The notes under the pieces are model-generated. The model was not told the DNA's origin, searched no databases, and saw only the letters and a program-made list of their open reading frames with translations. Made by a program: the position numbers and the translations under genes. From assembly GCA_040326155.1 (NCBI GenBank), contig JBEQLE010000086.1, positions 1 through 16,308 on the forward strand: 16,308 nucleotides of DNA. Reading direction: 5' to 3'. The stretch's first letter is position 1. Every line of letters begins with the position of its first letter. The DNA is from Leptospirales bacterium. Its GTDB lineage: Bacteria > Spirochaetota > Leptospiria > Turneriellales > JAOUFE01. Positions 7,470 through 13,304 of this stretch are shown one piece after another.

Positions 7470-8429
7470 TTACTGGAGAAACCCCATTCTTACCAGATCC
7501 ACTTTAAGTGCATCTACACCATCAGAACTTTTGTTTAAAGATTTTCTCTCTTCCGGGGTAAGTTCAATTTCGATAATTTTCTCAACTCCGTTTCCACCCA
7601 AAACAACAGGTACGCTGATAAAAATATTTTTATAGCCATACTCCCCGTTTAAAAATGAAGCAGCTGAAAAAATACGTTTTTGATCAAGCAAAATAGCTTC
7701 GGCCATTGAAATAGCTCCCGCCGCCGGAGCGTAAAAAGCCGAACCCGTTTTTAGTAAACCGACAATTTCGCCACCGCCGTTACGTGTTCTGTCGACCATC
7801 GCGTCAATTATGTCCGGGGTCATTCCGGGGTATTCAGGAAGTGGAATTCCGCCGATAAAAGAGTATCTTGCCAGGGGAACCATGTTATCGCCGTGTCCGC
7901 CAATTACAAAAGTTCGAATATCAGCCACACTTATACCGGTTTCCATCGATATAAAAGTACGAAAACGAGAAGCGTCCAAAATACCAGACATTCCAATGAC
8001 ATGACGTTTATCAAAACCGCTTATTTCAGAAAAAAGATAAACCATCGCATCTAAAGGGTTAGAGATCATAATAACAATGGCGTCGGGAGCATATTTTTTA
8101 ACGTTTTCGGCAACGCTTTTAATAATAATGGCATTTTTCTCCAGAAGGTCGTCCCGGCTCATACCAGGCTTTCGCGGCATTCCCGCTGTAATAATGACAA
8201 CATCAGCGCCTTCAATATCGCCATAATCGTTGGTACCCATGATGTTTGAGTTTAACCCTTCGACAGGAGTCGATTGAGCGATATCCAGAGCCTTACCCTG
8301 CGGCAAGCCCTCGACAATATCAAAAAGTACAACATCCCCGAGTCGTTTTTGTATGGCCATTAAGGCAAGATTGCCCCCGATATGACCTCCACCTATAAGT
8401 GCAATTTTATTTCTACTGAATCTAGCCAT
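7470..8429 (-). CDS. mdh: Malate dehydrogenase (LDH-like tetrameric type)
   Basis: IGGGHIG, EGLPQGKALD, TAGMPRKPGMSRDDLL (MDH substrate loop), SNPLDAM, GGHGD.MVP, GGEIV.LLKTGSAFYAPA. AGGAG RBS upstream. Confidence 0.97.
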   Translation of the reverse strand: MARFSRNKIALIGGGHIGGNLALMAIQKRLGDVVLFDIVEGLPQGKALDIAQSTPVEGLNSNIMGTNDYGDIEGADVVIITAGMPRKPGMSRDDLLEKNAIIIKSVAENVKKYAPDAIVIMISNPLDAMVYLFSEISGFDKRHVIGMSGILDASRFRTFISMETGISVADIRTFVIGGHGDNMVPLARYSFIGGIPLPEYPGMTPDIIDAMVDRTRNGGGEIVGLLKTGSAFYAPAAGAISMAEAILLDQKRIFSAASFLNGEYGYKNIFISVPVVLGGNGVEKIIEIELTPEERKSLNKSSDGVDALKVDLVRMGFLQ

Positions 8430-8584
8430 TGTTCTCTCCTTGATCTGCTTTCATAATTTAATAACGATATGAAACAAATCAAAACAGATGGTATAACCTG
8501 TCAACAATTTACGAAAAAGAGATTCCTTCTTTATAATGATTGTTGCTTCTGTAAATTCCGCATTCTCTAAGGAAATGTAACAGA

Positions 8585-8793
8585 GAAGAGATTTTTATAA
8601 GGAAAGCAGGAAGGAACGGCAGGAAAAGATGAAAGGACAGGATTAACCGGTTCACATGATTTGAGTGAAGATTATGTGCAAATTCAATATCCCATCTCTC
8701 TTAACCTGTAAATCCTGTTAATCCTGTCAAAAATTATTCTTGTTTTCTTTCTCCTCCATTCCTGTAATTCCTGCTTTCCTTGCACTACTCTTC
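8585..8793. repeat. Nested-palindrome repeat, complete copy A (REP/MITE-like)
   Basis: Outer perfect 14-bp IR AAGGAAAGCAGGAA (8599-8612) / TTCCTGCTTTCCTT (8768-8781). Inner perfect 12-bp IR GACAGGATTAAC (8636-8647) / GTTAATCCTGTC (8717-8728). GAAGAG/CTCTTC at the ends. Aligns end to end with 12004-12199. Confidence 0.9.
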
Positions 8794-8808
8794 GTTTTCA
8801 GTTATGAG

Positions 8809-8838
8809 ATAAGAAAGTAAGAACGGCAGGAAAAGATG
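8809..8838. repeat. Left-arm fragment of the repeat (copy B, left piece)
   Basis: GAACGGCAGGAAAAGATG (8821-8838) is identical to 8614-8631, and is preceded by ATAAGAAAGTAA resembling ATAAGGAAAGCAG. Confidence 0.8.
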
Positions 8839-8978
8839 CTGATTTCATTAAGATTTCTATAGCAATGTAAACTATATTCTTGACAACCTGCCTGAAAAAA
8901 ACTCAAATATTTACTGGATAAGATGTCCTGATATTTAGTATTATAACATTGATTTAGCAATTCATAACAGGAGTATTT

Positions 8979-9260
8979 ATGATATCACTCAAAGAAGCTT
9001 TAGAGGAAGTAAAAAAAAATTTCCTTGATTTGTATGGAGAAAACATTACCGACATCAGGCTGGAGGAAATTGATAATCGTGATATAGATGATTCATACCA
9101 GCTTACAGTCTCTTTTTTGATGCCAGAAAAAAACCTGCCTACTAGCCTTGGCGCAACATTAGCAGTTGCAACCAGGCCATATAGTAGATTGTATAAACGT
9201 GTTTCTATTAACAGGGAAGATGGTACAATTATTAATATAAAGATCTATAAAGATGAGTGA
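8979..9260 (+). CDS. Small protein upstream of PIN gene; putative antitoxin/partner
   Basis: AGGAG RBS, 93 aa, 8-nt overlap with the PIN ORF. The DIRLEE...YKRVSIN..DG.I.NIKI pattern is one I recall in proteins paired with PIN genes (not verified). Confidence 0.7.
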   Translation: MISLKEALEEVKKNFLDLYGENITDIRLEEIDNRDIDDSYQLTVSFLMPEKNLPTSLGATLAVATRPYSRLYKRVSINREDGTIINIKIYKDE

Positions 9261-9717
9261 AGTAATATTAGATACAAATGTTTTTACATTACTGATTGTC
9301 GGCCAAATAAAACCAGAAAAGATTGGCAGCCATAAAAGAACATCAATCTACAATAATGAACATTATAACTATTTGCTGGATATTCTAACAAACTACGATT
9401 CAATATTGATAAACCCGAATATCGTTACCGAAGTAGATAATTTATTGAATAATTTTTCTGGGGATGATAGATATCTTTATCTAAGTTTAACGAAAAATAT
9501 ATTCAAAGTCAGTAAAGAAAAATATATTAAGACCAGCGAAATCGTTGATACATGGCAATATGAAGCTCTAGGAATAACGGATTCAGCATTATTGATTATG
9601 GCTAAAGAGTGCGACCTCCTAATTTCAGGCGATAGTGAATTATGCGATTATGCTAAATCATCTGGTATAAATGTTTTCGATTTTAAAGAGTATGTCAATT
9701 TAACGACATATAAATAG
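9253..9717 (+). CDS. PIN domain (VapC-like) ribonuclease, putative toxin
   Basis: PIN acidic residues intact: ILDTNV, IVTEV, GITDSALL, LISGDSEL. 154 aa. Confidence 0.88.
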   Translation: MSEVILDTNVFTLLIVGQIKPEKIGSHKRTSIYNNEHYNYLLDILTNYDSILINPNIVTEVDNLLNNFSGDDRYLYLSLTKNIFKVSKEKYIKTSEIVDTWQYEALGITDSALLIMAKECDLLISGDSELCDYAKSSGINVFDFKEYVNLTTYK

Positions 9718-9835
9718 TAAGTATCCGTGCTATATTCGAGTATATTCTGTTTCGATTATTCGATTGAATTTTTAAGAGTAATTAATCTCTCGAATCTACT
9801 GTCATACCTTTCAAGAATAATTAAGTTTTTATTTT

Positions 9836-9915
9836 ATATGACGTCTTGAGGCAAGATGACCCGCCAACCAAGCGCCAGCGCAGTCGTGCCTGAGCTGATT
9901 AAAATTTGGTTATGC
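9836..9915 (+). other. Degenerate integron attC-like site
   Basis: 80-bp GC-rich patch in AT-rich DNA. It ends in GTTATGC (9909-9915, R'-like), begins with ATATGAC (imperfect R''), and has an internal imperfect IR AGGCAAGAT/GTCGTGCCT. The next gene starts immediately after it. Confidence 0.4.
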
Positions 9916-10928
9916 GTCGTAATAAATTGAGACGGAAAAGATATGAAAAGAACATTTATCATATCGATAAATTGTTTGATAGTTTTAAATCTAATGCCTT
10001 AATTTCCTTAAAAACAGCACTGGTCTCTTATATGGAAGCAACTCATGAAACATTTGGGAGTCGATATGAAGAAGCCTCAGATGAATATCACATGATCGAT
10101 ATAAATTTACAATTTCTAAAAGGCTATACAGAAACTATAATCCATTTCCATCATTTCATAGAATTGTCTTTAAAGGAAATACTAAGAGGTGAAAATGAAG
10201 TTTTCACAGTTGATTTTAAAAATCCGAAGGTAGCGTTTTCTGATATTATTGAAATGACTTATTCTGATAAAGATTCGATTTATAGAGAGCAAACAGTAAC
10301 TTTTATAGAAGCCTGGAGCAGAATTAAGATTCTGATTAATCACGGAAAACTTAGTGAGTACAAAGATATAATGGATGGATGGAGCCCAGCAATACACTTT
10401 TTAAATAAACTTAGAAACAGTATATGGCATCGTGGAACTTTGGTGATGGAATAAAATGATTTTAATGAATTTATTGGTATGCAAATATTGCCTATTTCCA
10501 TAAAATTACTTGAAACACTTTACAAGAATCAAGATAAAGAATTATGGAAAAGTAAAAAAATTGCAATTGACATTGATCCCATACGAGCCATAGTCAAAGA
10601 GTATACAAATGGTAAAGTTGTTAATTTGTATTATATCTATGTGCTTAAGAAGATTGGTTTGGCAGCGTATAATGAAACTCATTCATTTAACTTTAACGAT
10701 CAACCCAAACTAAAGAATGTAGATTCTAAAATAAAAGAAGAATCTGTGCAAGTTGATTTTAGTGAAAAAACCAAAGGGTGCCCTGTATGTGGCGAATTTA
10801 AACTGAAACTATATTTCATGGGTAATCCTGAATATTTTCAATGTCTAAACTGTGGGTTGTTCATTGAATTTGGCAGAGAAACACTTGAAAATAGTCCCTA
10901 TGAAGTAAGTTACCTGTGGAAAAAATAA
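9912..10928 (+). pseudogene. HEPN-motif protein with C-terminal Zn ribbon, interrupted by an in-frame TAA at 10452-10454
   Basis: ORFs 9906-10454 and 10479-10928 are in the same frame, separated only by TAA plus NDFNEFIG. Motifs HHFIELSLKEIL and LRNSIWH (Rx4H), then CPVC...CLNC at the C-terminus. Confidence 0.7.
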
Positions 10929-11030
10929 CCCATCTTTTTTAACCTGTAAATCCTGTTAATCCTGTCAAAATTCTTCTTGTTTTCTTTCTCCTCCATTCCT
11001 GTAATTCCTACCTTCCTTGCACTACTCTTC
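10929..11030. repeat. Right half of the repeat (copy B, right piece)
   Basis: Near-identical to 8691-8793 (CCCATC..TTAACCTGTAAATCCTGTTAATCCTGTCAAAA..TTCCTGTAATTCCT..TTCCTTGCACTACTCTTC). Starts at the base immediately after the stop codon ending at 10928. Confidence 0.92.
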
Positions 11031-11268
11031 ATTCTCCACATTCGCCCTGTATAAAATAAAAGGGGAAGCGTAGAACCGCTTGGCGGTCGAAGCGGGGGGA
11101 AAATATAAAACCGGCAATAGGAAAAACCCTGTTTTCCCCGCATAGGAATTAATAAATTATTGTTAATGATTGACGGGCATCTTTTTGAATAAATACCGGA
11201 GAACCGTATGAGAGGCATCCATAAAACAGGTGTTTGCTAAAAGCTCAAACAGTTTTGTGTCTATACGA

Positions 11269-11949
11269 TCAGAGAGTTTGCCCGATGACTGAAGTGACAA
11301 TGTTTTCCAGCTCTTTTTTCTTGTGGTGCAAACCGTACAGGATTATAAAACCCTGGGGTTTCTCATCGATAATATGCAGGCCCATCTCAATGTGGTAAGG
11401 CTCCGTTACCGGAGACAAATTGATCTTTAGAATATCTAGCTCAGTGTCATTCATGTAGCGACCTTTGAAGTAGAAATGTTCCACTTCGTTTGTTCTTTTT
11501 AAAAACAGATAATCCAGTTTTGTCGGCTTCCATGGCTCGTCGGAAAATTTCAGATCGATCTTTTTGCCCTGCAAATGAGAAATCACCTCGGAGCCCAGCC
11601 CGGCAAAAACATTTAAAGAATCTCTTTTGTTCACGTCAAAACCTTCGACTAAAAAATGAATGGCCAGTTCACTGTCGCTGTCTACATAGCGTTTTGTATT
11701 GGTATCGAAAAATTGAAAATATTTTTTTCTCACCCAGAGCTTGGCAATTGCCTGGGACACATTCCAAGCCAGAATTTCACCTTCGACCTCCCCTTCAAAA
11801 GCATCCTTCGTAAACGGGTCGAACGACTTAGTGTATATTTTAAGGTTTTTACCGTCTTGTGTAATTCGAGTGGTATTTTCATAAGCCCCCTGGGCGTCTT
11901 TATTGTAATCGTATTCGGACCACTCCGTTGTGATGTCTGGTATTGGCAT
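11269..11949 (-). CDS. Hypothetical soluble protein (226 aa)
   Basis: Longest ORF in the interval, protein-like composition, AGGT upstream of ATG, hairpin downstream of the stop. No family recognised. Confidence 0.75.
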   Translation of the reverse strand: MPIPDITTEWSEYDYNKDAQGAYENTTRITQDGKNLKIYTKSFDPFTKDAFEGEVEGEILAWNVSQAIAKLWVRKKYFQFFDTNTKRYVDSDSELAIHFLVEGFDVNKRDSLNVFAGLGSEVISHLQGKKIDLKFSDEPWKPTKLDYLFLKRTNEVEHFYFKGRYMNDTELDILKINLSPVTEPYHIEMGLHIIDEKPQGFIILYGLHHKKKELENIVTSVIGQTL

Positions 11950-12003
11950 AAAGTCAACCTATTTCAGATGTATGTTTGGTGTAAATAGATATAATAAAAA
12001 AAA

Positions 12004-12199
12004 TTTTATAAGGAAGGCAGGAAAAGAAAAAGATGAATGGACAGGATTTACATGATTAACATGATTTTAAGAAAAGAATGTGTGAGAATTAAATATTCCA
12101 TCTTTCTTAACCTGTAAACCGGTAAATCCTGTCAAAAATTCTTCTTCTCTCCTTGCTCCTCTTTTCCTGTAATTCCTGCTTTACTTATAGTTCACTCTT
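12004..12199. repeat. Nested-palindrome repeat, complete copy C
   Basis: Outer IR TATAAGGAAGGCAGGAA (12007-12023) / TTCCTGCTTTACTTATA (12173-12189). Inner perfect IR GACAGGATTTAC (12040-12051) / GTAAATCCTGTC (12122-12133). Same orientation as copy A; ends about 20 bp from the ispG stop. Confidence 0.9.
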
Positions 12200-12218
12200 T
12201 TCTTTATGAATCAATCTA

Positions 12219-13304
12219 CTATTCCGGCCAGGCTTCAATCAGTTCGACGACTTTTGTGTAAACCGAGTTTACCGGTATTTGACCCTGCGACTTCCCTTCT
12301 ATGTATAAAATGGCATAATCTTTACCGAGCGATACCCCGATGTCGGCGCCGCGAGCTTCTCCCGGACCATTGACCACACAGCCCATTACAGCCAGCGTCA
12401 GGTTCTTTTTCAGCTTCGAGGTTTTCGCTTCGAGCTTTTGTACAGCGCTAATCAGGTCTGCTTCGAGTCTACCGCAGGTCGGGCATGAAATAATAGTTAC
12501 ACCAAACGAAGCCAGACCAAGCGAACGAAGAATTTCTTTACCAGCCTTTACTTCGTCGACTCCATTCCCGGTCAGACTTACCCGAATGGTATCGCCGATT
12601 CCTTCAGCAAGTAAGGCTCCCATACCAACCGAAGAGCGGATAGTTCCCTGAAAAAGAGGGCCCGCCTCGGTAACGCCCAGGTGAAGAGGATAATCGACTC
12701 GGGTGGCCAACTCTCGGTATGCTTCAATCATCATCCAGACGTTGGAAGACTTTAGCGAAACAATTATATTATAAAATTCAAGCTCTTCGAGTATTTTAAT
12801 ATGGCGCATCGCGCTTTCGACCATGGCTGCCGAACAGGGGTAATTATACTTTTTCAAGATATCTTTTTCGAGCGATCCTGAATTGACGCCAATGCGTATG
12901 GGTACTTTAAAGTTTTTACAACCGTTTACGACCTCTGCAATTTTATCGGGCGAGCCAATATTCCCTGGGTTAATTCTTATTTTGTCCACACCTGCGTCCA
13001 GGGCCTGCAAGGCCAGGCGATAGTCAAAGTGTATGTCGGCTACCAATGGTATGTGTATTGCTTTTTGAATGTTTATAAGAGCTTTGGCCGCTTCGGGGGT
13101 ATTTACCGTACTTCGTACAATCTGGCATCCCGCTTCCTCGTACTCCTGAATTTGATCGACGGTTTTTTGCCAATCTTCGGTTTTCGTTTTCGTCATCGAT
13201 TGAACCGAAATGGGAGAATCAGAACCGATGGGAACATTGGCGACATTTACACCTCGGGTTTGTCTCCGGTTCTTCGGGTATAAATCATTATCCTGGGGCT
13301 TCAT
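12219..13304 (-). CDS. ispG: (E)-4-hydroxy-3-methylbut-2-enyl-diphosphate synthase
   Basis: PISVQSMT.T.T, PLVADIHFDY, KIRINPGNIG, RIGVNSGSLE, HLGVTEAG, GIGDTIRVSL, ISCPTCGR, AVMGCVVNGPGEA. Confidence 0.98.
   Translation of the reverse strand: MKPQDNDLYPKNRRQTRGVNVANVPIGSDSPISVQSMTKTKTEDWQKTVDQIQEYEEAGCQIVRSTVNTPEAAKALINIQKAIHIPLVADIHFDYRLALQALDAGVDKIRINPGNIGSPDKIAEVVNGCKNFKVPIRIGVNSGSLEKDILKKYNYPCSAAMVESAMRHIKILEELEFYNIIVSLKSSNVWMMIEAYRELATRVDYPLHLGVTEAGPLFQGTIRSSVGMGALLAEGIGDTIRVSLTGNGVDEVKAGKEILRSLGLASFGVTIISCPTCGRLEADLISAVQKLEAKTSKLKKNLTLAVMGCVVNGPGEARGADIGVSLGKDYAILYIEGKSQGQIPVNSVYTKVVELIEAWPE

Follow-up and report, generated by a model that had tools for sequence, protein, structure and literature searches.

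Integron cassettes are promoter-poor accessory and toxin-antitoxin (TA) genes bounded by imperfect palindromes. ERIC and Correia/NEMIS sequences are intergenic repeats of imperfectly palindromic structure whose internal part may be short or long; the neisserial ‘minimal mobile elements’ are hot spots between conserved genes at which alternative accessory cassettes are swapped by homologous recombination. We compared such systems with a locus of a Leptospirales bacterium in which two pieces of a palindromic element, together called copy B, enclose 2.1 kb of AT-rich DNA. The locus lies in a contig of 16,308 bp (C156; contigs are denoted by C and genomes by G), which was analysed as a whole and is referred to as the window. 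It belongs to a metagenome-assembled genome (G000) of 4.26 Mb in 171 contigs with 39.6% GC, which is 94.7% complete. A sequence-only reading of the window had proposed a hairpin-flanked gene-capture system. We find that copy B has counterparts: interrupted copies of the element recur in the genome, with hairpin arms at the joints of AT-rich TA/defence DNA and with clustered breakpoints. We give about an even chance to the reading that copy B is a real interrupted member of the family and that the hairpins are passive hot spots at which horizontally acquired, AT-rich accessory DNA is joined, with no need for a dedicated integrase.

The finding is a variant of two described themes, namely repeats that resemble miniature inverted-repeat transposable elements and mobile insertion cassettes (MITEs and MICs), and hairpin cassettes that resemble the intervening sequences (IVSs) of 23S rRNA. 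Like the IVSs with an open reading frame (ORF) in Coxiella, Leptospira and Salmonella, copy B is sporadic and AT-rich and carries genes in the loop of a stem of terminal inverted repeats. The accessible part of PMC4990558 describes the Coxiella IVS as a selfish element with a 28-bp terminal stem that is cut by RNase III, and it cites evidence for horizontal transfer of IVSs in Leptospira. In contrast to an IVS, copy B lies outside rRNA, has unequal arms that pair weakly and, where an IVS has a single small ORF, holds three transcription units in 2.1 kb. With MITEs and MICs, as far as the accessible parts of PMC5444012 and PMC4337579 describe them, the family shares a multi-copy short palindromic form beside longer forms that hold passenger genes between the same ends. 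According to an extract of PMC11602168, MITE-like elements are unusually abundant in Leptospirales (median 154 per genome). However, the family shows no target-site duplication in 13 of 15 hairpins, no sharp ends and no matching transposase in the four families searched, and it is interrupted internally, in the loop or inner stem, whereas MITEs and MICs hold passengers between complete ends.

Tandem-word hairpins that enclose GxxExxY genes are a further parallel, and their nearest published relative is the tandem heptamer repeats near ORF ends in Xanthomonas and Nostoc, which are described in the accessible text of PMC4692102. These hairpins resemble our family in their arms of 7-9-nt words, in the word ACAGGATTn, which flanks PF13366 genes, and in the large excess of empty over loaded hairpins. 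They hold a single nuclease gene of ~130 aa, whereas the cargo of copy B is kb-sized TA/defence DNA; moreover, the element of copy B is a composite of two word types, is ~200 bp long and lacks one inner arm. Two of the interrupted copies (C125a and C125b) suggest an exchange like that of integron cassettes, but the family copies are ~200-bp tandem-word palindromes which are dispersed in core intergenic spacers and not arrayed, and no IntI scores above its cut-off. Complementary R″ (RYYYAAC) and R′ (GTTRRRY) cores were not seen by eye in either of the repeat families described below. Unlike repetitive extragenic palindromes with their associated transposase (REP/RAYT), the family has no Y1 (RAYT) transposase (PF01797) in the genome. 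The sequences of ERIC, Correia and the minimal mobile elements are unrelated to it.

A palindromic repeat family with interrupted copies

A first nhmmer profile, built from the two intact copies of the window (A and C), gave 91 matches in the genome; after merging, these represent 54 loci, of which 29 are near full length. With a second profile of 193 positions, built from eight short-form copies, 139 matches were obtained across both strands. The family consists of lineage-specific, imperfect palindromes of ~200 bp per copy. It was not found in 39 of 40 relatives from the same family, order and class, and the remaining one (G013) gave 4 weak matches. Neither the window nor four loci with other interrupted copies matched any Rfam family at E <= 1, and no open-access paper was found that holds the arm sequences as text.

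Each copy starts with an outer arm around TATAAGGAAGGCAGGAA, which is followed by a purine-rich stretch that varies, by the inner arm GACAGGATTTACA(G/T)GATTAAC and, after a centre of ~40 or ~100 nt, by the mirror arms. Both kinds of arm are made of tandem short words: the inner arms carry two to three ACAGGATTn words, and the outer arms carry T-words of the AAGGAAGGCAGGAA or (A)AGGAAGGC type. The outer arms TATAAGGAAGGCAGGAA / TTCCTGCCTTCCTTATA recur through the family, and a terminal inverted repeat is present. Consistent differences between left and right arms give each copy a polarity. The element is structured, as seen in copy A, whose DNA fold reaches -35.7 kcal/mol compared with -19.3 +/- 3.4 kcal/mol for 200 shuffles, none of which was as low (z -4.83). 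Its ends are fuzzy; at the assumed ends of the two remaining hairpins, direct repeats of 2 and 5 nt occur within A-rich flanks. The similarity among family copies is 70-85%, and the closest pair is formed by the neighbouring right parts of copies A and B, with 92%.

By motif scan and nhmmer, seven interrupted copies were located in the genome, namely copy B on C156 as well as C125a, C125b, C138, C106a, C106b and C84. Their inserts measure 0.26-6.4 kb. With 27-36% GC, each of the seven spacers is poorer in GC than the genome (39.6%). In every case the halves are a true left and a true right half in one orientation and order, as judged from the best nhmmer strand. One breakpoint falls in the loop in 7/7 copies. 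The second lies in the loop in C138, C106a and C84, and at the boundary of outer and inner arm in B, C106b, C125a and C125b. For C138, C106a and C84, the two halves together make up a single model (positions 3-73 + 57-178, 4-84 + 107-183 and 4-81 + 92-178, respectively). C125a and C125b have sister arms and identical boundaries but enclose unrelated cargo proteins. Size, content and gene direction of the cargo vary between interrupted copies.

Several expectations of the sequence-only reading are borne out by these copies. Empty forms (A and C) do coexist with loaded ones, six further interrupted copies with consistent arm polarity having been added to B; breakpoints do cluster, namely in the loop and at the inner-stem base; and the cargo, which is AT-rich, does contain many TA/defence-type genes. 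As for the proposed capture system itself, the recurrent interruption is real, but an active system is not apparent from a family that mostly has no target-site duplications and a genome that has no Y1 transposase.

In the region C125:15640-19000 the two loaded copies stand in a row, separated by a YoeB/YefM pair that is encoded on the opposite strand. The edges of this region and of C106b share a recurrent GTAGTTCGGAATGCGACCGCACTACA-like motif, which is palindromic and GC-rich.

Copy B and its cargo in the mdh-ispG spacer

Copy B lies between mdh and ispG, both on the minus strand, in a spacer of 3.8 kb. This spacer contains, in order, copy A, the left piece of copy B (B-left), 2.1 kb of plus-strand genes, the right piece (B-right), a GC-rich repeat, a minus-strand ORF of 226 aa and copy C. 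In a relative of the same family (G001) the order is ispG, ~190 bp, mdh and algH, and the palindromic element is absent from the ispG-mdh spacer. The whole 3.8 kb is thus specific to the lineage of the present genome, or was lost in the relative, and its content was built by several events. The coordinates of all features are collected in the table.

B-left comprises an outer arm only. All 7 of its mismatches to copy A fall within the first 20 nt, and its inner end is exact. Because it shares the exact 18-mer GAACGGCAGGAAAAGATG with copy A (blastn-short E 0.002 against the genome) and matches the arm of another copy (C129:20681-20703) in 23/24 columns, it is a real arm of the family and no chance match. 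Its outer end lies within 2-4 nt of copy A, and its inner end falls precisely at the point at which an inner arm would begin. B-right starts in the centre, and the 59 bp of copy A at 8632-8690 have no counterpart between the two pieces. The order and polarity of both pieces fit one interrupted copy, and to this extent the claim of a split element stands: the 2.1 kb of AT-rich cargo is enclosed by genuine arms that are correctly ordered and oriented.

B-right aligns with the right part of copy A (A-right) with 92% identity over 114 columns (E 1e-40), with 8 mismatched columns and a gap; in a separate comparison of the direct repeats the identity is 93-94%. The next best family match to B-right reaches 85%. 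The last stop codon of the cargo is the TAA at 10926-10928, as the sequence-only reading had it, but the right piece does not begin after this codon: homology starts by 10924 at the latest, at least 5 nt before the stop codon, and possibly at 10901 according to nhmmer (model positions 67-186, the start corresponding to position 67). The last codons of the cargo gene may therefore be derived from the element. The junctions had been placed at an 8-bp inverted repeat. Like all coordinates of the sequence-only reading, its positions and letters are correct (AAAAGATG at 8831-8838 and CATCTTTT at 10931-10938), but it is mostly inherited from the element, since AAAAGATG and CATCTCTC are present in copy A. 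The microhomologies GGAAAAGAT and GGAAAAAAT were read from the sequence at the junctions of the cargo.

The cargo has 28-33% GC, compared with 40-48% in the flanking housekeeping genes. A stretch of 140 nt separates the left arm of copy B from ORF1, and the right arm is situated at the stop codon of the last gene. Scans of the region for promoters and terminators did not rise above shuffles. ORF1 and ORF2 are co-directional and overlap by 8 nt. ORF1 matched no named family; in another spirochaete genome (G118), a homologue likewise lies upstream of a PIN homologue, so that the pair is conserved. For ORF2, 58 homologues were found, some of them annotated at source as ‘PIN domain-containing’ or ‘predicted nucleic acid-binding protein’, and an alignment of 30 sequences keeps the residues D7, E60, D110 and D127 without exception. 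Neither Pfam nor NCBIfam gave a family at E <= 0.01/0.1. The structure model of ORF2 has a pLDDT of 93.6, and its best matches in the PDB are the PIN proteins 1o4w, VapC (5x3t/5h4g) and HARP (TM 0.5-0.58); the protein is thus predicted to have a PIN-like fold with conserved acidic residues. One locus with 29% identity was obtained in a metagenome scan with this protein. A model of the ORF1-ORF2 complex scored 0.75, while the best control scored 0.00; contacts agree to >=85% between runs and the pLDDT of the partner is >=76. The mark of 0.75 is reached by 116/157 solved complexes and by 2/215 mismatched pairs, counts that hold roughly here because our own alignment was used. The modelling supports binding of ORF1 to ORF2, and the two form a candidate TA pair. 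Within the phylum the pair is patchy, being present in 9/401 genomes including the present one, and some copies are broken.

The third cargo gene is HEPN-like with a zinc ribbon. An in-frame TAA at 10452-10454 splits it into ORFs of 182 and 149 aa. The read-through product (X at the stop) aligns across the break with a single protein of 365 aa (32% over 279 columns, E 5e-31), and the TAA may reflect a pseudogene, read-through or a sequencing error. Motifs of the Rx4-6H type were read by eye both in the window (RNSIWH) and in the only homologue (RNRLVH). The N-terminal half alone gave the PADLOC match PDC-S64 (3.8e-4), the read-through had no match in PADLOC, and the Zn_ribbon match is weak (0.0048). 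Used alone as a query, the N-terminal half finds only itself. The 226-aa ORF between B-right and copy C had no match in Pfam, PADLOC or NCBIfam and was not found beside ispG in the DNA of G001 that was examined.

Table. Features of the window and spacers of the other interrupted copies in the genome
Feature	Position in window or spacer length	Strand	Evidence or content
mdh (malate/lactate dehydrogenase), conserved flank	7470..8429	-	Pfam Ldh_1_N 1.5e-40, Ldh_1_C 7.7e-30; adjoins ispG in G001
Copy A, intact: outer T-word arm, inner ACAGGATTn arm, centre, mirror arms	8576..8804	+	nhmmer E 4.6e-45, model positions 3-190
B-left, outer (T-word) arm only, without inner arm, directly abuts copy A	8802..8838	+	81% to 8595-8631
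Non-coding cargo head	8839..8978	+	sequence
ORF1, 93 aa, candidate antitoxin, conserved partner of PIN-like gene	8979..9260	+	35%, E 6e-15, to ORF upstream of PIN homologue in G118
ORF2, 154 aa, PIN-like nuclease domain, candidate toxin	9253..9717	+	58 homologues, predicted fold
Worn 3′ part of second dispersed repeat family	9873..9923	+	nhmmer E 5.7e-8, model positions 108-155
HEPN-like + zinc-ribbon gene, one frame broken by TAA	9906..10928	+	read-through aligns with 365-aa protein
B-right: centre-right, inner arm, outer arm; direct repeat of A-right	10924..11036	+	92% to 8686-8799
Third dispersed repeat, GC-rich, ~95 nt	11051..11145	.	~20 BLAST matches on other contigs
226-aa ORF between B-right and copy C	11269..11949	-	ORF list
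Copy C, intact palindromic element	11995..12209	+	nhmmer E 1.5e-52, model positions 4-190; inverted repeat
ispG (GcpE), conserved flank	12219..13304	-	Pfam GcpE 7.9e-147
C138	1.6 kb		MBL-fold gene with defence-type PADLOC matches
C106a	6.4 kb		OLD/AriA-like ATPase-TOPRIM + unknowns
C106b	3.9 kb		HicAB and others
C125a	1.2 kb		small ORF + ~220-aa ORF, no family
C125b	1.1 kb		small ORF + ~220-aa ORF, no family
C84	262 bp		no ORF

An ‘attC-like site’ that had been proposed within the cargo turned out to be a worn copy of a second dispersed repeat family. The site at 9840-9916 ends in GTTATGC, and an inverse complementary core was not seen by eye. The second family is ~150 nt long and has 70 nhmmer matches genome-wide (for example C98:42030-42227, C161:288-484 and C106:10714-10914) and no Rfam match; a promoter-like stretch was read by eye. 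In its GC stem, 5/7 pairs change on both sides and 88% of cells are paired, compared with 14-47% with a slid partner, a covariation that 0/500 shuffles reached. RNAalifold missed this stem, and the named structure was then counted. The seven spacers, which make up 16.5 kb or 0.39% of the genome, hold 8 of the 70 matches, where 0.27 are expected. An ORF follows 19/42 good copies. Among 17 such ORFs scanned were two AAA_15/AAA_21 ATPases, one PIN_12 and one PRTase-CE, and 10 were without a family. The third repeat of the window and the 5′ flank of some second-family copies have the stretch CTTGGCGGT in common.

The search for enzymes covered four transposase and recombinase families (PF01797, PF01609, PF00665 and PF00589). 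PF01797 (Y1_Tnp, RAYT) had no match in the genome, and PF01609 (DDE_Tnp_1) matched two fragments only. PF00665 (rve) gave five matches, mostly short fragments; one lies in an open frame of 358 aa (C107), the position of which relative to the arms was not compared. Four Xer-like tyrosine recombinases were found with PF00589, among them one XerD above its equivalog cut-off and two XerC/XerD-like proteins. The fourth gave the best score with the integron integrase model TIGR02249, 181.8 bits where the cut-off is 265, and did not match the middle part of the model. This agrees with the earlier remark that no integrase is in view. The XerD gene beside C106a was considered as an island integrase and rejected, as it scores above the XerD equivalog cut-off. 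A tyrosine recombinase of 352 aa is encoded near a contig end at C12:8247-9305 on the minus strand; its scores of 206 (XerA), 184 (XerC) and 182 bits (integron integrase) are all under the cut-offs, and none of the repeat families was seen beside it.

The inner arm word and GxxExxY genes in other phyla

The inner 21-mer GACAGGATTTACA(G/T)GATTAAC occurs exactly in more than 121 stretches of species genomes from many phyla, among them Acidobacteriota, Verrucomicrobiota, Chloroflexota, Planctomycetota and Bacteroidota. At <=2 mismatches, 83, 81, 35, 9 and 1 arms were counted in five of those genomes, and the backwards control gave 0. Among the matches listed, 126 unique sites were searched for a partner arm. 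It was present within 100 nt at 62 sites, at 101-300 nt at 11 and at >300 nt at 8; no partner was found at the other 45, 20 of which had at least 1 kb of DNA to search. The sites are mostly short intergenic hairpins just after stop codons, and they are AT-rich even in GC-rich genomes.

Some loops between inner words contain an ORF of the GxxExxY type (L126, motif by eye). In three genomes of three phyla (G430, G431 and G432), the ACAGGATTn word brackets 3/13 PF13366 genes and 0/17 genes of PF05635, the family of the four-helix-bundle protein encoded in 23S rRNA IVSs. Inverted arms of tandem words as such are frequent at these genes: they score >=15 at 25/30 PF13366/PF05635 genes, compared with shuffled maxima of 9-13, and for PF05635 alone they are present at 14/17 genes. 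These arms lie mostly 20-60 nt from the gene ends and consist of 7-9-nt words, and the word differs from gene to gene. The Leptospirales genome has no PF05635 gene that we could find and a single PF13366 (GxxExxY) gene, at C126:27701-28042 on the minus strand, which is flanked by outer T-word arms of the family. The region C126:27480-28420 shows three pyrimidine T-word arms upstream of this gene and a purine T-word arm downstream, with a further small hairpin adjacent. Within the accessible portions of the open-access literature, we found no link of GxxExxY/PDDEXK_3/PF13366 genes to hairpins; nor did most searches for an IVS protein with inverted repeats give an open-access paper.

Origin of the interrupted copies

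What the sequences show is an association rather than a system, and its most economical explanation is host recombination or repair at a fragile repeat. Long hairpins would act as hot spots of recombination or breakage and as portable homology, and host recombination and repair would join foreign DNA either within the loop or at the inner-stem base. For copy B this could have happened by insertion into a broken hairpin loop, in the course of which one inner arm was lost. Alternatively, a single crossover between the resident A-right and an arm on incoming circular DNA would leave the 92% direct repeat of A-right and B-right. Because B-right is such a direct repeat of the adjacent A-right, a recombination that duplicates the arm would explain copy B as well as insertion into the centre does, and is as likely. 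The anatomy of the copies, their recurrence, the clustered breakpoints, the base composition and type of the cargo and the lineage-specific widening of the spacer are direct observations; we infer insertion rather than loss as the direction of events, and likewise the enzymes.

A number of observations weigh against passive joining at a split copy. The duplex of B-left and B-right has an energy of -25.9 kcal/mol, which is z -1.4 relative to purine/pyrimidine-matched shuffles, while A-left with A-right reaches -38.8 kcal/mol (z -4.2) and A-left with B-right -32.8 kcal/mol. The pair T8818:A11010, which had been put forward as a compensatory change, does exist, but it carries little weight as the two pieces pair no better than their composition predicts. 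A-right and B-right form direct repeats around B-left and the cargo, which speaks against a simple split copy. A comparison of each left arm with the reverse complement of all right arms carries no weight either way: the copies were unoriented, and left and right arms are each better conserved across copies than complementary within a copy. Some polarity calls among the halves are weak, with E 0.058 for one half of C125b. Of 111 arms, 57 lie outside hairpins, and the outer T-arm words often occur alone, so that a half consisting only of an outer arm could be an independent fragment. Solo arms 300-8000 bp apart show a weak excess of the plus-minus arrangement (7, compared with 5 plus-plus, 3 minus-plus and 2 minus-minus). 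G001 is the sole genome of the family that keeps ispG next to mdh within the DNA examined; at the other 28 ispG loci, mdh was not within the ~1.5 kb examined around ispG. The present genome is alone in its genus, and the IspG proteins of the nearest genomes are only 58-66% identical. These relatives are so distant, and so nearly devoid of the element (4 weak matches in G013 among 40 genomes), that they give no empty site at species level from which the direction and timing of events could be read. Finally, the strict conservation of the inner word across phyla suggests a protein that recognizes the sequence, which the passive model does not explain.

Such a protein would be expected if the arms were the ends or recognition sites of a unit that is moved by an enzyme acting in trans, with site-specific capture or exchange of cargo. 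The enzyme could be an unseen transposase of a MITE or MIC system, or a PD-(D/E)XK ‘GxxExxY’ nuclease that cuts hairpins. We regard an active cassette system of this kind as unlikely on the whole, but the conservation of the inner word across phyla and its tie to a nuclease family keep an enzyme-driven model alive. The clustering of breakpoints at two structural positions and the identical boundaries of C125a and C125b around different cargo would also be accounted for, as would the exact 21-mer with its many copies per genome, the PF13366 genes between ACAGGATTn arms, the word arms at most PF13366/PF05635 genes, and the T-word arms around the only PF13366 gene of the genome. The fuzzy ends without target-site duplication, the lack of a Y1 transposase and of an integrase above the integron cut-off, and the divergence of the copies, which shows no sign of recent movement, argue against it. 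The same holds for the variable size, content and gene direction of the cargo and for the finding that no nuclease gene of the PF13366 type lies in or beside copy B.

Quite unlikely, in our estimate, is a mere coincidence of decayed pieces. The spacer would then be an ordinary insertion hot spot for islands and MITE-like repeats, the arrival of the cargo would be unrelated to hairpins, B-left would be an independent outer-arm fragment and B-right a local partial duplicate of A-right. The degenerate first 20 nt of B-left, its poor pairing with B-right, the frequent solo arms with their weak adjacency statistics and the richness of Leptospirales in MITE-like repeats (PMC11602168, in its accessible part) would all fit. 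They are opposed by seven interrupted copies with consistent polarity and a loop breakpoint in each, by the halves of C138, C106a and C84 that complete one model, and by B-left itself, which abuts copy A and ends at the same outer/inner boundary as the pieces of C125a, C125b and C106b. That the contig is a chimera joined at repeated arms is highly improbable. The window is a whole contig of a metagenome-assembled genome in 171 contigs, and repeats of the family are located at several contig ends (such as C35, C98 and C51). However, A-right and B-right differ at 8/114 columns and a gap, and their longest exact shared run of ~34 nt, determined by eye, is shorter than usual final k-mers. In addition, mdh-algH and ispG on either side are syntenic with G001, so that both contig ends belong together.

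A wider proposal goes further, and we hold it to be speculative and rather improbable. Hairpins built of words would be docking sites of an integrase-free gene capture across phyla, in which the GxxExxY nuclease carried in some hairpins cuts cognate hairpins and the break is repaired with available DNA. If this were true, the structure that spreads a nuclease gene would also bring TA and defence genes into core intergenic spacers. At a later stage the insert might be insulated by the arms in the RNA, in the way in which RNase III insulates the intervening sequences of rRNA. The spirochaete family, with 7 interrupted copies among ~54 loci, would then be the first case of kb-sized defence cargo in word-built hairpins.

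Defence and TA genes turn over fast, and how most of their islands are joined to the genome is known only where an integrase is present. With ~54 hairpins, 7 of them interrupted, and a spacer that measures ~190 bp in one genome and 3.8 kb in the other, the family provides a testable link between a structured intergenic repeat and gene gain. Even if the arms are only passive hot spots, they explain contig breaks, mark accessory DNA and warn against reading such pieces as a dedicated cassette system. The inner word, which is identical across phyla and elsewhere encloses an uncharacterised nuclease family, bears on a very large class of unexplained intergenic elements.

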